Under the pieces are notes generated by a model. It was given only the letters and a program-made list of their open reading frames with translations. It did no database searches and was not told the DNA's origin. The position numbers and the translations under genes were made by a program. Source: a bacterium (GTDB lineage: Bacteria > Patescibacteriota > Minisyncoccia > UBA6257 > UBA9933). Taken from it: DNA of 64,000 nt. The stretch lies in the NCBI GenBank assembly GCA_021796335.1, contig JAJYHZ010000002.1, positions 100,516-164,515 of the forward strand. The letters run 5' to 3'. Each line of letters opens with the position of its first letter. The first letter of the stretch is position 1. Shown here piece by piece: positions 4,624 through 16,316 of this stretch.

Positions 4624-5124
4624 TCATTCAAACCTAACCTTAACTTTTTTGGATTTTTTCTTATCAACTTTCGGCAAAATAATCTTTAGAATTCCGTTTT
4701 TAAAAGTAGCAGACACGTGGTCGGGGTTAATTTCCTGCGGAAGAATGACTGAGCGAGAAAACCTGCCCCAGTAACACTCCTGATAAAGATAATCGCGTCC
4801 TTCGGTTTTTCCCGTGTATTCTCTTTTGCCCTTAACGGTTATGGCTTCGGGGCTTATTTCCAAATCCAGGTCATCGGCATTGACTCCGGCAATCGCAGCT
4901 TCAATGACGATATCATCGGAAGTCTGATAAACATCAATCGCCAATTGCCCCTCTCCTTCGTCAAAAATTTCCGATTCTTTTTCTTTTTCAAAGTTTGTTT
5001 CTCTCTCTTTCACGGATGACGCCTTAACTAATTGAGGTTCAAAATTTTGCTCTTCGTCGGATTCGGTGGAAACGACTCCGGCCAATTTTTCAAAGAATTT
5101 TTTCGTGTTGTCGTCGTGTGACAT
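4624..5124 (-). CDS. Hsp20/alpha-crystallin family small heat-shock protein
   Basis: C-terminal alpha-crystallin domain (RSVILPQEINPDHVSATFKNGILKIILPK) with an acidic N-terminal region. Confidence 0.8.
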   Translation of the reverse strand: MSHDDNTKKFFEKLAGVVSTESDEEQNFEPQLVKASSVKERETNFEKEKESEIFDEGEGQLAIDVYQTSDDIVIEAAIAGVNADDLDLEISPEAITVKGKREYTGKTEGRDYLYQECYWGRFSRSVILPQEINPDHVSATFKNGILKIILPKVDKKKSKKVKVRFE

Positions 5125-5141
5125 GCGAATTTCAGATTTAA

Positions 5142-5819
5142 TTAATTGATTTTAATGTTATCATTTTTTTTCAAAATCTCAAAATCGTTAAAAATAAAAA
5201 AAGCCGCAAAAATCAGTATGATAATCGGATAAATAAATATGCCGCTAAAAACGATTATGGAATAGTTAAAAATTGCATGAAGAGCGGTTGCCAGAATTAA
5301 GCCAAACACGGAAAAAATAAAAACTTTTTTCTTTATGATTCCTTTTGCCCAATAGTAGCCGACTAATCCGGAACTGAGTACGTGCAGCAGAGTCGCGCCC
5401 AAAAATCGGAATACGAGCAATCCGATCCGTTCATCAAGTATCTGATTGCCGAACATTATGCCTATGTTCTCTATGGCGGCCATGCCGGAAGCGGCAGTTA
5501 TCATGTAAATCATGGCATCAATCGGCTCGTCGAAAAATTTGCTTTTACGCATTATCAAAAAAACCGGAAAGAATTTAAGAATTTCTTCGACGGCGGCAAA
5601 TCCGAATATTGGGCCGAAAGTTTTTAAATTCGCAAAATTGTCCGGAAATTCCAGCTGTAACAGATATTGAATCCCGGCCGCAAGAAGAGCGGAAAACATT
5701 CCGACCAGAAAAAGGGGGAATATTGTTCTTTTCGGTTCCGGATGAATATCTTCCTGAAGAAAAAATCCCAACCAGATAAAACTGGGCAACAAACCCAAGA
5801 ATATTAGCAGAACATTCAT
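5142..5819 (-). CDS. PrsW-family intramembrane protease-like membrane protein
   Basis: Polytopic membrane protein with FAAVEEILKF (EExxK), GMAAIEN and LLHVLSSG motifs resembling the PrsW/CPBP-type protease signature. Confidence 0.55.
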   Translation of the reverse strand: MNVLLIFLGLLPSFIWLGFFLQEDIHPEPKRTIFPLFLVGMFSALLAAGIQYLLQLEFPDNFANLKTFGPIFGFAAVEEILKFFPVFLIMRKSKFFDEPIDAMIYMITAASGMAAIENIGIMFGNQILDERIGLLVFRFLGATLLHVLSSGLVGYYWAKGIIKKKVFIFSVFGLILATALHAIFNYSIIVFSGIFIYPIIILIFAAFFIFNDFEILKKNDNIKIN

Positions 5820-5916: not shown

Positions 5917-7170
5917 TTAAATCTCAAACCATCCCTTGATTATATTTTCTTCAATAATTTCGGAAAGTTTTTCCTCCCCGAAAAATTCTATGAAAATTTT
6001 ATTCCATAAAGATTCCTGCTGGTGATAGAGATATCTAGCCATTTCTTTTTGTTTGACCAGATCCATGGCCGCGTCCACCAAGTTGAAACTGACCAAGACA
6101 TCTATTCCGGAATCAGTTTTGAAATAATCGCCGACCCAGCCAAGATCGTGCCAAAAGCTCAAATCGGCGGTAAAACCTTTTAGTTCGCGGGAAATCAAAA
6201 GAAGCATCCTTTCCGCTCTGGCCCAGTGCAAAGCTTCGGGATTTATGTGCGGCTCGAACAAGCGCCAGTCGTTGGGATCGTCTTTCGTCAAATATCTTTG
6301 AATAACCATCCAGGTTGATTTGCCGGAAGGCGGCAAACGTTTTTCCGGCACGTCGCCCCGCAACAAGGAAACTATTTTTTTTGAAAAATCGCCTTCATTT
6401 TGGGAATAACGCCTGAATAATCTGGAGTAAAAAGCGATTTCATTGAAATAATGCAGAATCAGAGAGAAATTACGCAGTGTCTCGCCGGTGATTTCCAAAG
6501 ATAAGGGAAGAGCGTAGATGACACCGAGTTCTTTCAGGTGGCTGATATTATGGTGCTTTTTCTGGATAAAACTTCTTGCCAATACAGACCATTTTTCCGG
6601 CAAAGCCAGGGTAGTGATCTCCCTTTCTTCAAAATCAGACGGTTTCAAAGTTTCGTACTGCTTAAAAAAAACGTTACTGAGCCATTCGCCTCCTTCAATA
6701 AAGCGCAAACTGCTGTAAATTTCAAAAAAATCTTCATTAGCGGTAAGTTCGTCGACATCTCGATAACCCAAGGCCTGAATAACATTTAAGGGCGGCTGAT
6801 TTTTCAAAAATTCCAAAGCTTTTTCTTTTTTTAAAAAAAGTCCTTTTTCGGGATTAATCAGTTTTTTGCTTACTTTTAAAATATTGTCCCAATCTTTTGG
6901 AGAAGTGGCGCTAGGTTCGCCTAAAACTTTGTAAAGTTTAGCATCATCTTCTCCCAGTTTTTTGATAATCGCATCATAAACATTTTTGGCCGGCGCGTCC
7001 TTTTCCAGGCCGAGCAGATTCAAATGACTGCCGATGGAATTCTCGTTCTTCTCCCACAATTTTTCTATCACATCTTTCTTTCCGGTTATGTCGGAAAACT
7101 TTTCTTCTATTGACCGCACAACATCTTTGTCAATCCGTAAAATTTTCGCGATGTTTTCGTAGGGTTTCAT
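5917..7170 (-). CDS. hypothetical protein (417 aa)
   Basis: Long uninterrupted ORF with a coding-like composition. No recognisable domain. Confidence 0.5.
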   Translation of the reverse strand: MKPYENIAKILRIDKDVVRSIEEKFSDITGKKDVIEKLWEKNENSIGSHLNLLGLEKDAPAKNVYDAIIKKLGEDDAKLYKVLGEPSATSPKDWDNILKVSKKLINPEKGLFLKKEKALEFLKNQPPLNVIQALGYRDVDELTANEDFFEIYSSLRFIEGGEWLSNVFFKQYETLKPSDFEEREITTLALPEKWSVLARSFIQKKHHNISHLKELGVIYALPLSLEITGETLRNFSLILHYFNEIAFYSRLFRRYSQNEGDFSKKIVSLLRGDVPEKRLPPSGKSTWMVIQRYLTKDDPNDWRLFEPHINPEALHWARAERMLLLISRELKGFTADLSFWHDLGWVGDYFKTDSGIDVLVSFNLVDAAMDLVKQKEMARYLYHQQESLWNKIFIEFFGEEKLSEIIEENIIKGWFEI

Positions 7171-8334: not shown

Positions 8335-9030
8335 TTACATTTTTTTAATTTCAACGGGAGTAGGTATATCTTTCGACGTATTTTTATAAATGAAAGGAAC
8401 TCTGATAGTCGGTTTAGGCAGAATCAAATCGGGAATGGACAAAAGCATGAGGGAGCTGCCCAAAGACAAGAATCCGGTGAGGATAAAGACGATATTGAAA
8501 CCGAAATTTTTTGATAAGAATCCGCCGATGAAAGCGGCAACGCCGGAAACGATGCCTATAGTAGTGCTGTCCAAAGACCAGTCAAGAGAATAGCGGTCTT
8601 TGTCCAAATGGCGGGAAAAAATCGCGTTCCAGGAGGGAGAATACAGACCGAAGGCTATGCCTTGCAAAAAAGTGACCAGATAAAGTTCGAGAGTCGATCT
8701 GACGGTAAGAAATAAAATCGCGGCGAATCCCGCCAGTGTCAACGCGGATATCAAAGCATAGAAATCATCCTTTTCGCCGGGATGCTTGTCCAAGAAAACC
8801 GCCACGGGAATTTGAATGACGGACTTGGTTATCCAGTAAACGGAATAAACGCTTCCGACGACAAAAAAACTGGCATGAACTTTTTGAGTGATAAACAAAG
8901 CCAGCAAAGGATTGATTAAGCCCCAACCGCCCCAAAGAAATAGATCGGAAAGGACAAAAAATTTAATGACTCTGCCAACCGATAGATTTTTGAAGTTGAT
9001 ATTAATGTTTATCCTCATAATGAACGGCAA
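8335..9030 (-). CDS. MFS-like 6-TM membrane protein (half-transporter or truncated)
   Basis: Six predicted TM helices with MFS-like loops (GIAFGLYSPSWNAIFSRHLDKDRYS). Only half the size of a 12-TM MFS transporter. Confidence 0.45.
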   Translation of the reverse strand: MPFIMRINININFKNLSVGRVIKFFVLSDLFLWGGWGLINPLLALFITQKVHASFFVVGSVYSVYWITKSVIQIPVAVFLDKHPGEKDDFYALISALTLAGFAAILFLTVRSTLELYLVTFLQGIAFGLYSPSWNAIFSRHLDKDRYSLDWSLDSTTIGIVSGVAAFIGGFLSKNFGFNIVFILTGFLSLGSSLMLLSIPDLILPKPTIRVPFIYKNTSKDIPTPVEIKKM

Positions 9031-9033
9031 ATA

Positions 9034-11562
9034 TTATGAAAGCGCCGCGGCGGAATCGGTAAATTTTATTTCATTATTTTCTAATTTCAACAAGACTGAT
9101 TTTCCTTTATTTATTTCTCCGCGGAGAATTTTGTCGGCCAAAACGCTTTTGATTTTATCCGAAACAACTCCGCGCAAAGGCCTGGCTCCGAAAACCGGAT
9201 CATAGCCGATTCGGGCGACGTAATTTACCAATTCATCATTGAATTGTAAATTTATCCCCTGGTTTTCTTCCAAAGTTTTTACGAGATTATCCAGTTGAAG
9301 ACGCGCGATTTGAACCGTGTCTTCGATGGACAAATTTTTAAAAATAATAACATCGGAAAATCGGTTAAGCAACTCGGGTTTGAAAGACGCGGTGAGTTTC
9401 TTTTTGAAATCCTCCTTGATTTCCGAAATAGACTTTCCTTGTTCCAGCTGATCTTTTATGTAATCAGAATTGGCGTTGGAAGTGGCGATGATAATGGTAT
9501 TTTTGAAATCGACAACGCGGCCGGAGTTGTCTGTTAGGCGGCCGTCATCGAAAACCTGAAGAAATAGGTTCAGAACATCGGAATTGGCTTTTTCAAATTC
9601 ATCCAGAAGAATGAGGCAGTACGGTTTTTGAATGACGGCCTCGGTCAAGCTTCCCGTAACTTTCCCGTCCGGAGAGCCGATGAAGCGGAAAACGCTTTGT
9701 TTATCCTGATATTCGGACATATCGAACCTGATCATGGCGTCGAATGAACCGAATTGAGTTTTAGCCAAAGTTTTGGCCAATTCGGTTTTACCGACTCCGG
9801 TAGGACCGACGAATAAAAACGCAGCGATCGGCCCGGACGAACGGCCCAATCCGCTGCGGTATTCACGCAAAGATCCGGAAACCGCTTTTACCGCTTCTTC
9901 CTGATCGATTAAATCTTCATGAATGACGTTTTCTAAATTCAACAATTTTTCCGCTTCTTCCCGGGTTGTTTTATGAATGGGAATGTTAACCTTTCTTTCG
10001 CTGACGGCAATTATATGGTCGGACTTCAGAACATTATCGCCTTTTTGAGTGGCATAAGCCAAAGCTTCTTTTAGTAGATCCTCGGCGCTGGAAGGCAGCA
10101 ATTTTCGCCTAAAATACTTATGAGCCAAAACAACGGCCTGCTTAATCGCCTCAAAGCTGATAATCACTTTGTATTGGTTTTCGAGAAGCAAACTGTCGTA
10201 AGCCAAGAACCGGATTGATTCGTCTTCGGAAAGTTCATCCACTTTAATCACATCGAACGCATTCATGAAATCGCTGCGCGGTTCAATATCCTGCTTAAAA
10301 TCCCTGTAATAAGCGGAGCCGACCACGGAAAAAGCATCAGTCTTTATAGCCGGCAATATTATATCGGCGGCGTTCATGTAATGATCGCCGGAAGTGCGCA
10401 CCAGGTTATAAATGTCTGGGATGAATAAAATGACATTGCCCGCAGTCATGATTTCATCGATAACTTTATTGACTCTTCTTGAAACTTCCTGAGGATCGGC
10501 GTTTGATATCAGGCTGCTTATTTGGAGACCGACCAAGCGTTTATCAAACAGCGCTTCCGGAATTTCATCGCGAACGATTTCCGACGCCAAATGATGGACC
10601 AAAGCATCCGAACCGCTGCCCGGATCGCCGACCAGCAACACATTCGGCCGCGTCGGACGGGAAAGGACATCAACCATTTGTTTATATTCTTTTTCGTGGC
10701 CAACCAGAAATCCGGTTTTTCTGTCTCTGGCCAAATCGGTAAAATCAATACTAAAGCTGTCAAGAACGGGGGTAGGGCGCGCCGTCCAGGACCGGTTCAT
10801 AATGCGATGTCGATTTTTCGGAGAAATGACAAACCCGCCGATGGTTTCGGGCAGTTTGGAAATCCAGGTTTTGTATCGATAACGGCTGAAAATAAGCGCT
10901 TTATTCAAATCGTCGGCGTCGATGGAGAACATATAAAAAATCTTTTTGACGCTTTCGCCGCCGATATGTCCCAGCGAGGAAAAAATATGGCTGACATCTA
11001 TGTAATCGGAATTTTCGAAAAAGGCCTCAAGAAAAGCATTCTTGATTAAAAGGCTTGTTTTTTCAAATACTTGTTTTTGATTTTCTTTTATTTCTTTTCT
11101 TGATTTTGAAATTTCTTCGTCTAATTTCTGCTCAAATTCCTCAGGGGAAACTTCGAGACGCCAGAGAGCCCCTCTTATGCCTTTGTTTTTCATTAAGAGT
11201 TGCATCAGATTAAGATGGAAATCGCCACCGACTATAATCGTTCTGTCATAAGATTTTTCGATGGTGTGAAAAACCCGCGGCAGCAAATAATCCATCGCAT
11301 CGGCGCCGCTAATCGTTTCTTGGTTAAGTTCATTTAGAGAGTGCAACGGTTTGTTCAAGTGTATGAATCGATTGGCTAAAAACAAAAGAAATAACGCGCC
11401 CACCCATTTAAGCCAAATAATTTCGAAAGCGACGAATAAAACGGAGGCTATCGCAAAAATGATATAAAAGGAAAAATAAATCAGGCGCCACAAAAATCGC
11501 AAAAAAGGCGAAAATTCAAGGCGCGGCTCAGAAAAATAAATTTTGTTTAAATCCATACTCAT
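9034..11562 (-). CDS. ClpB/ClpC-like AAA+ ATPase with N-terminal transmembrane anchor and degenerate first AAA module
   Basis: D2 module is intact (FVGPTGVGKTELAKTLA, LILLDEFEKA, GARPLRGVV). In D1 the P-loop reads GDPGSGSD where GxPGVGKT is expected, and the Walker B reads LFIPDI. The N-terminus has two hydrophobic helices instead of a Clp N-domain. Confidence 0.8.
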   Translation of the reverse strand: MSMDLNKIYFSEPRLEFSPFLRFLWRLIYFSFYIIFAIASVLFVAFEIIWLKWVGALFLLFLANRFIHLNKPLHSLNELNQETISGADAMDYLLPRVFHTIEKSYDRTIIVGGDFHLNLMQLLMKNKGIRGALWRLEVSPEEFEQKLDEEISKSRKEIKENQKQVFEKTSLLIKNAFLEAFFENSDYIDVSHIFSSLGHIGGESVKKIFYMFSIDADDLNKALIFSRYRYKTWISKLPETIGGFVISPKNRHRIMNRSWTARPTPVLDSFSIDFTDLARDRKTGFLVGHEKEYKQMVDVLSRPTRPNVLLVGDPGSGSDALVHHLASEIVRDEIPEALFDKRLVGLQISSLISNADPQEVSRRVNKVIDEIMTAGNVILFIPDIYNLVRTSGDHYMNAADIILPAIKTDAFSVVGSAYYRDFKQDIEPRSDFMNAFDVIKVDELSEDESIRFLAYDSLLLENQYKVIISFEAIKQAVVLAHKYFRRKLLPSSAEDLLKEALAYATQKGDNVLKSDHIIAVSERKVNIPIHKTTREEAEKLLNLENVIHEDLIDQEEAVKAVSGSLREYRSGLGRSSGPIAAFLFVGPTGVGKTELAKTLAKTQFGSFDAMIRFDMSEYQDKQSVFRFIGSPDGKVTGSLTEAVIQKPYCLILLDEFEKANSDVLNLFLQVFDDGRLTDNSGRVVDFKNTIIIATSNANSDYIKDQLEQGKSISEIKEDFKKKLTASFKPELLNRFSDVIIFKNLSIEDTVQIARLQLDNLVKTLEENQGINLQFNDELVNYVARIGYDPVFGARPLRGVVSDKIKSVLADKILRGEINKGKSVLLKLENNEIKFTDSAAALS

Positions 11563-11575
11563 TACTAATGAAAAA

Positions 11576-11956
11576 TTAGATTCCTATTTTAAAAATATTC
11601 ACAACCGGATTGTAATCTATTATTTTGAAAATTATATAAAGGGGAATCGCCGCCCAGATGATGAACATTGCGGCGGCGATGATAATAACGAACAGATAAA
11701 TTATCCCGCCGATCATTAGCCGTAAAGAACGAAATACAAAACCCAGAACATACCCTATTATGCTGTGATCCTGATAAAGAGGCTTAAAAAGGAAACGCCA
11801 AGTTATTTTAAGGGCAAAAATTTTGTCCAAACTTTCCAAAAGAATCAAAGTCCTGTGAGCGTGAAAAATAAATCCGCGCAAATACCACTGCCGGATAAAT
11901 TCAGAAATCCGGAAAATAAAACGATTGAAAGCAAAAATAATGAAATCACCAAGCAT
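11576..11956 (-). CDS. hypothetical small membrane protein
   Basis: 126 aa with 3 predicted TM segments. First gene of the operon that continues into the Clp-like ATPase. Confidence 0.45.
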   Translation of the reverse strand: MLGDFIIFAFNRFIFRISEFIRQWYLRGFIFHAHRTLILLESLDKIFALKITWRFLFKPLYQDHSIIGYVLGFVFRSLRLMIGGIIYLFVIIIAAAMFIIWAAIPLYIIFKIIDYNPVVNIFKIGI

Positions 11957-12096: not shown

Positions 12097-12141
12097 AATC
12101 AAATTTTGAGCGATCGCTCAAAATTTGATTGGTTATCCACA
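12097..12141 (+). repeat. dispersed 45-bp element: 34-bp perfect palindrome plus DnaA box (copy 1)
   Basis: AATCAAATTTTGAGCGATCGCTCAAAATTTGATT at 12097-12130, then GG, then TTATCCACA at 12133-12141. Confidence 0.9.
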
Positions 12142-12489
12142 ATCACATAACAACGCAACAAAAAGGGGCGCAAGATGCGCCCCGAAATTTTGAAAAAGAA
12201 GTTTTTACCTGGCTACTTTAAGCCAGAGCTTGGACATAACCTCGTAATTTACAACTCCGAAAATCGCGCCGACAAAACTGCCGATTATGGCGTGGCCGGC
12301 GAAATAACCGATTCCGGCGCCAATGGCCGAATCCACTCCTCAAAGCAGATGTTCGCCTGAATGAATAAGCAAGAAAAGGTATTTGAAAAATTTGCCGACG
12401 AGCTTTCCCAAGGTTAACAATGCCAAGATAATCAGGAAAAATTTTTCGTTCCGTTAAGTATGACCTATAAAAAATGACCGAACCTAAAG

Positions 12490-16231: not shown

Positions 16232-16316
16232 GCCCAGGTGGTGAAATTGGCAGACACGCAGCGTTCAGGTCGCTGTGAGGGCAACCTCGTGGGAGTTCAA
16301 CTCTCCCCCTGGGCAC
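16232..16316 (+). tRNA. tRNA-Leu(CAG)
   Basis: GCCCAGG acceptor pairs with CCTGGGC. Anticodon loop TTCAGGT gives CAG. Long variable arm. No encoded CCA. Confidence 0.85.

Follow-up and report, generated by a model that had tools for sequence, protein, structure and literature searches.

A predicted membrane-anchored Hsp100/Clp-like ATPase of Patescibacteria with a degenerate first ATPase module and pore loops lacking tyrosine

The Hsp100/Clp proteins are textbook examples of threading machines; the mechanism depends on pore-loop tyrosines and on the cooperation of two ATPase rings, D1 and D2. Substrates of these machines travel from D1 to D2; in ClpA, D1 mainly supports hexamerisation and D2 is the main motor. 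A stretch of 64,000 nucleotides from a patescibacterial genome (GenBank assembly GCA_021796335.1, contig JAJYHZ010000002.1, positions 100,516 to 164,515; the whole stretch is called the window here) encodes an 842-residue Hsp100/Clp-like protein that departs from this scheme in both rings. From its sequence and that of its relatives we favour, with modest confidence, the reading that it is a membrane-tethered ATPase, independent of ClpP and DnaK and driven by D2, that would remodel membrane-associated clients together with a small partner protein. The gene and the parts of its product are located as follows, in window coordinates.

9034 to 11562, minus strand: gene for the 842-residue, predicted membrane-anchored Hsp100/Clp-like ATPase, stop codon included (open reading frame, Pfam, phmmer against the PDB, AlphaFold2 (AF2) model)
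11359 to 11508, minus strand: N-terminal hydrophobic helix hairpin, residues 19 to 68, the predicted membrane anchor (hydropathy, AF2 helices, conservation)
10876 to 11298, minus strand: highly divergent, all-helical Clp N-terminal domain, residues 89 to 229 (Foldseek, weak profile matches)
10768 to 10872, minus strand: linker from N-domain to D1, residues 231 to 265, with the motif GGF-x(6)-RHRxMNRAWTARPTP (family conservation; disordered in AF2)
9967 to 10767, minus strand: D1 AAA+ module, residues 266 to 532, a catalytically degenerate pseudo-ATPase ring (alignment, motif table)
10606 to 10629, minus strand: D1 Walker A GDPGSGSD, with Lys to Ser and Thr to Asp (alignment; ClpB counterpart GEPGVGKT)
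10414 to 10431, minus strand: D1 Walker B ILFIPD, with hhhhDE changed to hhhhPD (alignment; ClpB counterpart ILFIDE)
9037 to 9966, minus strand: D2 AAA+ module and C-terminal small domain, residues 533 to 842, the sole intact ATPase (Pfam, alignment)
9652 to 9678, minus strand: D2 pore loop-1 GSPDGKVTG, without the canonical Tyr and four residues shorter (alignment; ClpB counterpart GAPPGYVGYEEGG)
9391 to 9477, minus strand: region that carries the ClpP-docking (I/L/V)-G-(F/L) loop in ClpA, ClpC and ClpX, a loop missing here (alignment, 215 members)

By its domains and its fold the protein is a member of the class-I Hsp100/Clp superfamily. D1 (AAA) is followed in tandem by D2 (Pfam AAA_2, 1.2e-52) and a C-terminal ClpB_D2-small domain (8.5e-22), which is the class-I layout, and AAA_lid_9 is matched as well. 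The closest solved relatives found by phmmer in the PDB are Thermus thermophilus ClpB (4e-118) and then the ClpC proteins of Staphylococcus aureus and Bacillus subtilis, with ClpA also matched. The AF2 model, built with 73 homologues as input, has a mean predicted local distance difference test score (pLDDT) of 84.3; it superposes on the protomers of ClpC, ClpB and ClpA, with Foldseek target-normalised template modelling scores (TM-scores) of 0.75-0.79 against ClpB and ClpC.

By the defining features that were tested, the protein belongs to none of the named subfamilies with which it was compared. Against the NCBIfam equivalog models it reaches 489.6 bits for ClpB (TIGR03346, cut-off 1232.1), 437.8 bits for ClpA (TIGR02639, cut-off 993.15) and 395.9 bits for ClpV, or TssH (TIGR03345, cut-off 884.95), and it stays under every ClpA and ClpC cut-off. 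No genes of a type VI secretion system were seen among the conserved neighbours of the ATPase loci, and Pfam finds no Peptidase_M41, the protease domain of FtsH, in the protein. The middle (M) domain of ClpB and ClpC is absent, since ClpA, itself without one, aligns in a single stretch (residues 266-834 to 168-744), while ClpB and ClpC each need two and skip about 105 and 55 residues, respectively; the AF2 model likewise contains no long coiled coil. A first-pass annotation, made from the nucleotide sequence and its translations, had already described the protein as lacking the middle coiled coil, and this alignment pattern agrees with it.

The most conspicuous departure is in D1, which is 32% identical to D1 of T. 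thermophilus ClpB. Motif counts in the family, here and below, refer to 215 non-redundant full-length members aligned with a fragment of that ClpB. The family consensus for the D1 Walker A is GEPGSGKE: 198 members keep the Lys, 11 have Arg, and the window protein alone has Ser, whereas the Thr position is Glu in 169, Asp in 16 and Thr or Ser in just 18. In Walker B, Pro takes the place of the Asp in 203 members and Asp that of the catalytic Glu in 183, and the sensor-1 Thr is Tyr in 170. Both Arg fingers are lost family-wide (N/G/S/K, then Ala; the pair reads NA in the window protein), and the pore-loop Tyr is gone too, with no aromatic residue in D1 pore loop-1 in 211 members. The competence of both ATPase modules that is a trait of ClpB is therefore wanting, D1 reading GSGSD, PD and NA at the key sites. 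The first-pass annotation had picked out the GDPGSGSD P-loop and the Walker B without its catalytic Glu; both were recovered in the residue-level alignment, and a degenerate D1 turns out to be common to all 215 relatives. A shifted frame or a misassembly at the P-loop, which would undo this reading, is ruled out: the frame is uninterrupted, the codon of Ser318 is TCG, two substitutions away from any Lys codon, and the protein recurs, identical, in two independent assemblies (ENA ERZ27233565; Logan SRR13170411).

Although it has lost its catalytic residues, D1 does not appear to be decaying. Mean pairwise identity in the family is 0.565 in the D1 large subdomain, with a second D1 value of 0.54, against 0.35 in the N-domain (the D2 large subdomain reaches 0.72), a pattern indicative of purifying selection. 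The most divergent members, some of which have GKT or GKS in D1, still lack the Walker B DE, the Arg fingers and both pore tyrosines, and the 215 members, the most divergent included, contain no evolutionary intermediate in which D1 is intact or a pore loop canonical. The degenerate traits thus appear ancestral to the family. Most members, with GK-E in Walker A, may still bind nucleotide in D1; D1 of the window protein, with GS-D, is probably nucleotide-free.

D2 presents a different picture. It is 52% identical to D2 of T. thermophilus ClpB and carries GPTGVGKT as Walker A and LILLDEFEKA as Walker B. These motifs, sensor-1 (N696), the Arg finger (R734) and sensor-2 (R794) are invariant or nearly so in the family, with at least 197 of the 215 members agreeing at every key position and 214 having Arg734. 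To this extent D2 is canonical, as had been supposed at first reading; its pore loop is not, having lost the Tyr together with four residues. An aromatic residue is missing from this loop in 213 members and the loop length is fixed at 10. The position of the Tyr is variable (Lys in 96, Ser in 28, Arg in 23, Ala in 14, Asn in 12, Thr in 12, Glu in 7), and the flanking S-P-D-G and final Gly are conserved across the family. Neither ring, then, has the aromatic (Tyr) pore loop-1 expected of translocating class-I Hsp100 rings. Processive unfolding by Hsp100 proteins depends critically on aromatic pore loops (PMC5425593). With no aromatic residue in either loop, and with the D2 loop shortened, processive unfolding is doubtful. 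Of the "single-engine, membrane-tethered unfoldase" that the first-pass annotation proposed, the predicted tether and the single live ring survive this analysis, and the word unfoldase is not safely inferred.

The C-terminal half also bears on the name under which the family is filed. The window protein has a 7-residue gap opposite the S. aureus ClpC sequence "fagfggs", and the docking tripeptide [LIVM]G[FL] occurs in 0 of the 215 members, in a region of constant length. Without this loop the protein would not be able to feed ClpP, and "Clp protease ATP-binding subunit", as the databases call it, is a misleading name. A search for ClpP had been suggested as a lead, which the missing loop renders moot; a ClpP probe found no clpP in the 64-kb window, a weak result that is uninformative for the whole genome.

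At the N-terminus, a hydrophobic hairpin (Kyte-Doolittle peak 2.44) is modelled by AF2 as two helices, residues 19-45 and 49-68, at pLDDT 89-98. It is conserved family-wide, with S46, D47, W53 and G55 near-invariant. The first-pass annotation had noted these helices, correctly, but took them to stand in place of the Clp N-domain. A separate model of the N-terminal region (AF2, pLDDT 87.8) points the other way: all of its top 50 Foldseek matches in the PDB are Clp N-terminal domains (PfHsp101, ClpC, ClpC1, ClpA, ClpB, ClpD and Hsp104), headed by that of PfHsp101. Against entries that comprise an N-domain alone, most target-normalised TM-scores lie in the range 0.6-0.78; the alignments span about 140 columns, and identity is 10-18%. 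At the sequence level the signal is weak, with the ClpC and ClpB N-domains ranked first by profile at E 0.04-0.1 and Pfam Clp_N detected weakly in 4 of 19 members, so the domain is not visible by eye. On the evidence of the model, a Clp N-domain is retained behind the hairpin, which would be an addition and not a replacement. The linker between N-domain and D1 contains the invariant residues P238, R251, R253, N256, R257 and W259, and its mean pairwise identity of 0.58 exceeds the 0.35 of the N-domain; with pLDDT below 50, it is nevertheless predicted to be disordered. Conservation of a segment predicted to be disordered is typical of one that binds something else.

The family to which these features belong has a narrow distribution. 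A search of 5.8 billion proteins returned at least 120 homologues at 52-65% identity; among the matches listed, the named ones are from Patescibacteria/Parcubacteria (Wolfebacteria, Zambryskibacteria, Harrisonbacteria, Paceibacterota), with the exceptions of one "Spirochaetia" and one "bacterium". With the N-terminal 265 residues as query, just 182 clusters were matched among 1.84 billion cluster representatives, the full-length ones being 782-851 residues long. A scan of one genome per GTDB species found the family in at least 296 genomes, and nearly all of the 80 that were retrieved are labelled as Patescibacteria or Parcubacteria lineages. The N-terminal region therefore appears to mark a family confined to Paceibacteria-type Patescibacteria. 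Many of the metagenome-assembled genomes that carry it (loci L016, L030, L032, L033 and others) are titled "uncultured Candidatus Saccharibacteria bacterium", a label that looks generic or wrong. NCBI and JGI name the homologues "ATP-dependent Clp protease ATP-binding subunit" or ClpC, and full-text searches of the literature turned up no account of a patescibacterial Hsp100 that is anchored in the membrane or lacks pore tyrosines. The family is previously undescribed, and the databases give it generic names only.

The gene for the ATPase is flanked by genes for two membrane proteins, the upstream one being the candidate partner, and a terminator-like hairpin lies further upstream.

11576 to 11956, minus strand: gene for the 126-residue candidate partner, with a conserved N-terminal part of about 80 residues and one strong C-terminal transmembrane (TM) helix at residues ~82-110 (synteny, conservation)
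8335 to 9018, minus strand: gene for a half-size, 227-residue membrane protein of the major facilitator superfamily (MFS) type (Pfam MFS_1 1.2e-21, N-terminal half of the profile only)
12165 to 12183, minus strand: predicted terminator-like hairpin upstream of the cluster, parting the cluster from the preceding genes (8-bp stem with 7 GC pairs, T-run; consensus match)

In the window the small gene ends 13 nucleotides from the start of the ATPase gene. Neighbour counts were taken from profile searches over 83 related loci, and in 76 of the 78 that could be tested for it the small gene is directly upstream on the same strand, commonly with a 4-nucleotide overlap. The operon that the first-pass annotation had tentatively drawn with the upstream 126-residue membrane protein is well supported by this recurrence. 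The adjacency holds even where no other neighbour is shared. The small protein belongs to a family of 498 clusters, all "hypothetical protein", all from Patescibacteria and without a Pfam domain; searches of Pfam, NCBIfam, PADLOC and PDB sequences gave no match to it. W24, D44, A48, P59, G72, R76, R79, Y87 and W101 are invariant, and L60, Y61 and Q62 nearly so. The length range given for the family is 111-128 residues (118-128 in the Wolfebacteria and Harrisonbacteria loci). Some public annotations call the protein at 87 residues (P0121); the 126-residue start is likely correct, because R16, F20, W24 and Y25 of the longer form are conserved family-wide.

The half-size MFS protein starts 15 nucleotides past the ATPase stop codon in the window, and public assemblies also call it at 227 residues. 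Such a gene, encoding about 215-230 residues, follows the ATPase directly in 38 of 68 testable loci and often overlaps its stop codon. A stand-alone six-helix half of an MFS protein is unusual in itself. In Wolfebacteria and Harrisonbacteria the trio of small protein (118-128 residues), ATPase and MFS-type protein (~225 residues) recurs and the outer neighbours vary. Outside Wolfebacteria the order is typically uracil-DNA glycosylase (UDG), small protein, ATPase, in some cases the half-MFS, PolX/PHP polymerase and NUDIX (loci L003 and L012-L083, for example L003 11195-13409 and L026 3645-4295); of 81 loci, 51 have PolX, 28 NUDIX and 25 UDG. The lineage of the window lacks these repair genes and keeps the pair of small protein and ATPase, so the adjacency to them is provisionally treated as inherited gene order.

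From these shared features a family can be proposed, the TM-hairpin Hsp100 of Paceibacteria. It would be defined by the hairpin, the divergent Clp_N domain, the RHRxMNRAW linker motif and the upstream small gene, and, at the level of motifs, by GK(E/D) and P(D/E) in D1 and a G(S/T)PDGxΦxG pore loop in D2. The window protein has every one of these features save the D1 Lys.

How such a protein might work can be outlined. ATP is cytoplasmic, the flanks of the hairpin are basic and its turn is acidic (S46, D47); both ends of the hairpin are on these grounds predicted to be cytoplasmic, and the soluble part would lie on the cytoplasmic face. The ATPase hexamer would hang from that face of the membrane, with the N-domains and the D1 ring toward the bilayer and D2 distal. 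D1 would be an assembly or regulatory scaffold ring, comparable to D1 of ClpA, D2 of NSF or D1 of p97, and D2 the sole motor, the hydrolysis of which would power the remodelling or extraction of membrane-associated clients. If there is an adaptor, a regulator or a co-substrate, the small membrane protein is the leading candidate, and it might act with D2 or control it. Control by DnaK or MecA in the known way would not be possible without an M-domain. The predicted anchor belongs to the N-terminal, or D1, end. With substrate passing in the usual Hsp100 direction, from D1 to D2, a pull would draw clients away from the membrane, toward extraction or remodelling and not secretion; action would probably consist of short-range gripping or remodelling, not of processive unfolding. 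The first-pass annotation had spoken of a lineage-specific machine for membrane quality control or secretion, and here the lineage specificity holds up and secretion fits poorly with an anchor on the D1 side. Several points weigh against the favoured reading. The non-aromatic pore loops of both rings argue against classical extraction or unfolding, the hexamer is assumed by homology, and both the insertion of the hairpin into the membrane and its topology are predictions from hydropathy and AF2 secondary structure. The link to the small protein rests on gene adjacency, which could in part be inherited synteny.

The state of the pore loops raises the possibility, unlikely on balance, that D2 moves no polypeptide and is instead a switch driven by ATP, comparable to Torsin or Bcs1, by which a membrane complex is assembled, gated or remodelled. 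Conformational changes would then pass via the N-domains and TM hairpins to a complex that contains the small protein and, at loci that have it, the half-MFS. Two non-aromatic loops, one of them four residues shorter, would fit such a device, and the variability at the Tyr position of D2 suggests that it has no gripping role. The obligate membrane-protein partner, the frequent transporter-like neighbour and the highly conserved, basic and aromatic linker facing the membrane would all suit it, and Torsins themselves are Hsp100-related, membrane-associated proteins without aromatic pore loops that depend on transmembrane cofactors (PMC5425593). Unlike Torsin, however, D2 keeps its own Arg finger and all of its catalytic motifs; its second pore-loop region, DDGRLTDxxGR, stays ClpB-like, and a conserved hydrophobic residue in the D2 loop (I/V/M at position 635) makes some substrate contact possible. 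The half-MFS, moreover, is missing at about 44% of loci. The membrane-tethered, D2-driven remodeller remains the reading that we prefer.

It is improbable that the protein is simply an ordinary ClpB-like disaggregase of the cytosolic type, tethered and serving as the lineage's replacement for ClpB. ClpB and ClpC are its best overall sequence matches, its C-terminal half is without a ClpP loop as in ClpB, genes for HSP20 and PrsW lie a few kb downstream in Wolfebacteria, and human Skd3 is reported to show that a lone D2-type ring is able to disaggregate (PMC7343390). Coupling to DnaK, however, is lost with the M-domain, D1 is dead, the tyrosines are gone from both rings, the score is 489.6 bits against the 1232.1 of the ClpB equivalog, and heat-shock regulation through CIRCE or CtsR can be set aside, none of 82 loci having such a box ahead of the small gene. 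A motor acting on nucleic acid, in which the often-basic pore residue of an anchored hexamer would touch DNA or RNA and which would have a functional tie to the DNA-repair genes nearby, is very improbable. It would account for the UDG, PolX and NUDIX gene order outside Wolfebacteria and for Lys or Arg at the D2 pore position in 119 of the 215 members, but about 45% of members have S, A, N, T or E at that position, the repair genes are missing from the very lineage of the window in which the small protein and the ATPase stay together, and no Hsp100 is known to translocate nucleic acid. Least credible of all is the ClpP-associated protease subunit of the database names. Those names, and the presence of ClpC chains among the best structural matches, are set against a docking tripeptide that no member has, the deletion at the site of the S. 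aureus ClpC loop, the absence of a ClpC-type M-domain, scores under all ClpA and ClpC cut-offs and, weakly, a window without clpP. A role in anti-phage defence was also considered and rejected: the PADLOC matches to the ATPase are to generic AAA models only, and neither neighbour is matched.

Other features of the surrounding DNA can be recorded here. A perfect 34-bp palindrome (window 12097-12130, AATCAAATTTTGAGCGA / TCGCTCAAAATTTGATT) precedes the small gene by about 140 nucleotides; other loci do not share it ahead of the cluster, and it was rejected as a conserved operator. An uncalled open reading frame for 43 residues (window 12205-12336, minus strand), followed directly by the terminator-like hairpin, has a glycine-zipper-like hydrophobic sequence (MDSAIGAGIGYFAGHAIIGSFVGAIFGVV...) and may be a gene for a small membrane protein. 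About 3 kb downstream of the ATPase and on the same strand, genes for a PrsW-family intramembrane protease and HSP20 occupy window positions 4624-5819 (minus strand). Both are also found in the Wolfebacteria loci L001, L002, L084 and L085, and this stretch may be a local proteostasis neighbourhood, in the Wolfebacteria lineage only. A 417-residue protein without a Pfam match (window 5917-7170, minus strand) has a counterpart in the same relative position in Wolfebacteria (418 residues in L001 and L002). ARAGORN predicts a tRNA-Leu(CAG) at window 16232-16316 (plus strand) that is missing from the Rfam scan at gathering threshold; of the window's five tRNA genes, four specify tRNA-Leu.

It is important to consider what such a family offers. 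It amounts to a natural experiment, spread over hundreds of species of Patescibacteria, on the capacity of an Hsp100 ring that has only D2 and no pore tyrosine. It is a candidate for a core membrane-proteostasis or membrane-remodelling system in a poorly understood and largely uncultivated lineage, it corrects the systematic mis-annotation as "Clp protease ATP-binding subunit", and it provides a first functional context for an orphan family of 111-128-residue proteins. Were the Torsin/Bcs1-type reading true, the family would be a bacterial counterpart of those systems, an Hsp100-derived tethered hexamer that has given up threading. Its single live ring and an obligate small protein would then remodel, gate or energise a membrane complex, possibly with the half-MFS, and this would be a new coupling of an AAA+ motor to the membrane in minimal-genome, episymbiotic organisms.

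Among described systems, ClpB/Hsp104 shares with the 842-residue protein the N-domain fold, two stacked AAA+ modules, the D2 ATPase motifs, the ClpB_D2-small domain and the lack of a ClpP-docking loop. The patescibacterial protein differs in having no M-domain coiled coil, a dead D1, an added membrane hairpin, neither pore-loop tyrosine and a D2 loop that is 4 residues shorter. With ClpA and ClpC it has in common an N-domain of their type and, with ClpA, the spacing of D1 and D2, but it lacks the ClpP-docking loop, the D1 Walker B, the Arg fingers and the pore Tyr, and it has an anchor. It has no known adaptor such as ClpS or MecA, and an orphan membrane protein is found instead. FtsH is likewise a bacterial AAA+ hexamer that is anchored by two N-terminal TM helices and acts on membrane proteins; it differs in its one AAA module, fused M41 protease and aromatic pore loop. 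HSP101 of the Plasmodium PTEX resembles the family in that it, too, is an Hsp100 linked to a membrane complex, and its N-domain heads the list of structural matches, but HSP101 is soluble and docks via D2 onto the EXP2 pore, whereas the predicted anchor here is on the D1 side; no protease is involved.

The division of labour between the rings also has parallels. In NSF (D2), p97 (D1) and PEX1/PEX6 (D1), one ring is kept for structure or oligomerisation, hydrolyses ATP poorly or not at all and has pore loops without aromatic residues, and the other ring is the motor; these proteins belong to another AAA clade, however, and their active ring keeps aromatic pore loops, which here neither ring does. 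Torsin, which acts with LAP1/LULL1 in the eukaryotic endoplasmic reticulum and nuclear envelope, is derived from or related to the Hsp100 D2 type and has an N-terminal hydrophobic segment, no aromatic pore loops and membrane-spanning partner proteins (PMC5425593), where the partner in the present case is known from gene adjacency. Torsin is nevertheless a single AAA+ module without an Arg finger of its own, which its cofactor supplies, whereas D2 of the patescibacterial protein has a complete set of catalytic motifs, its invariant Arg finger among them, and D1 persists as a dead ring, so that the resemblance would be one of analogy and not of membership. Human CLPB, or Skd3, can be regarded as a precedent for an Hsp100 motor with D2 only: in it, a ring of the ClpB-D2 type is the sole motor, an N-terminal hydrophobic stretch serves for anchoring, and activity is independent of ClpP and Hsp70 (PMC7343390). 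The two differ in that Skd3 has ankyrin repeats in place of the Clp N-domain and D1, keeps its pore-loop Tyr and has its anchor cleaved off, while the protein described here keeps N-domain and D1 behind a conserved hairpin.

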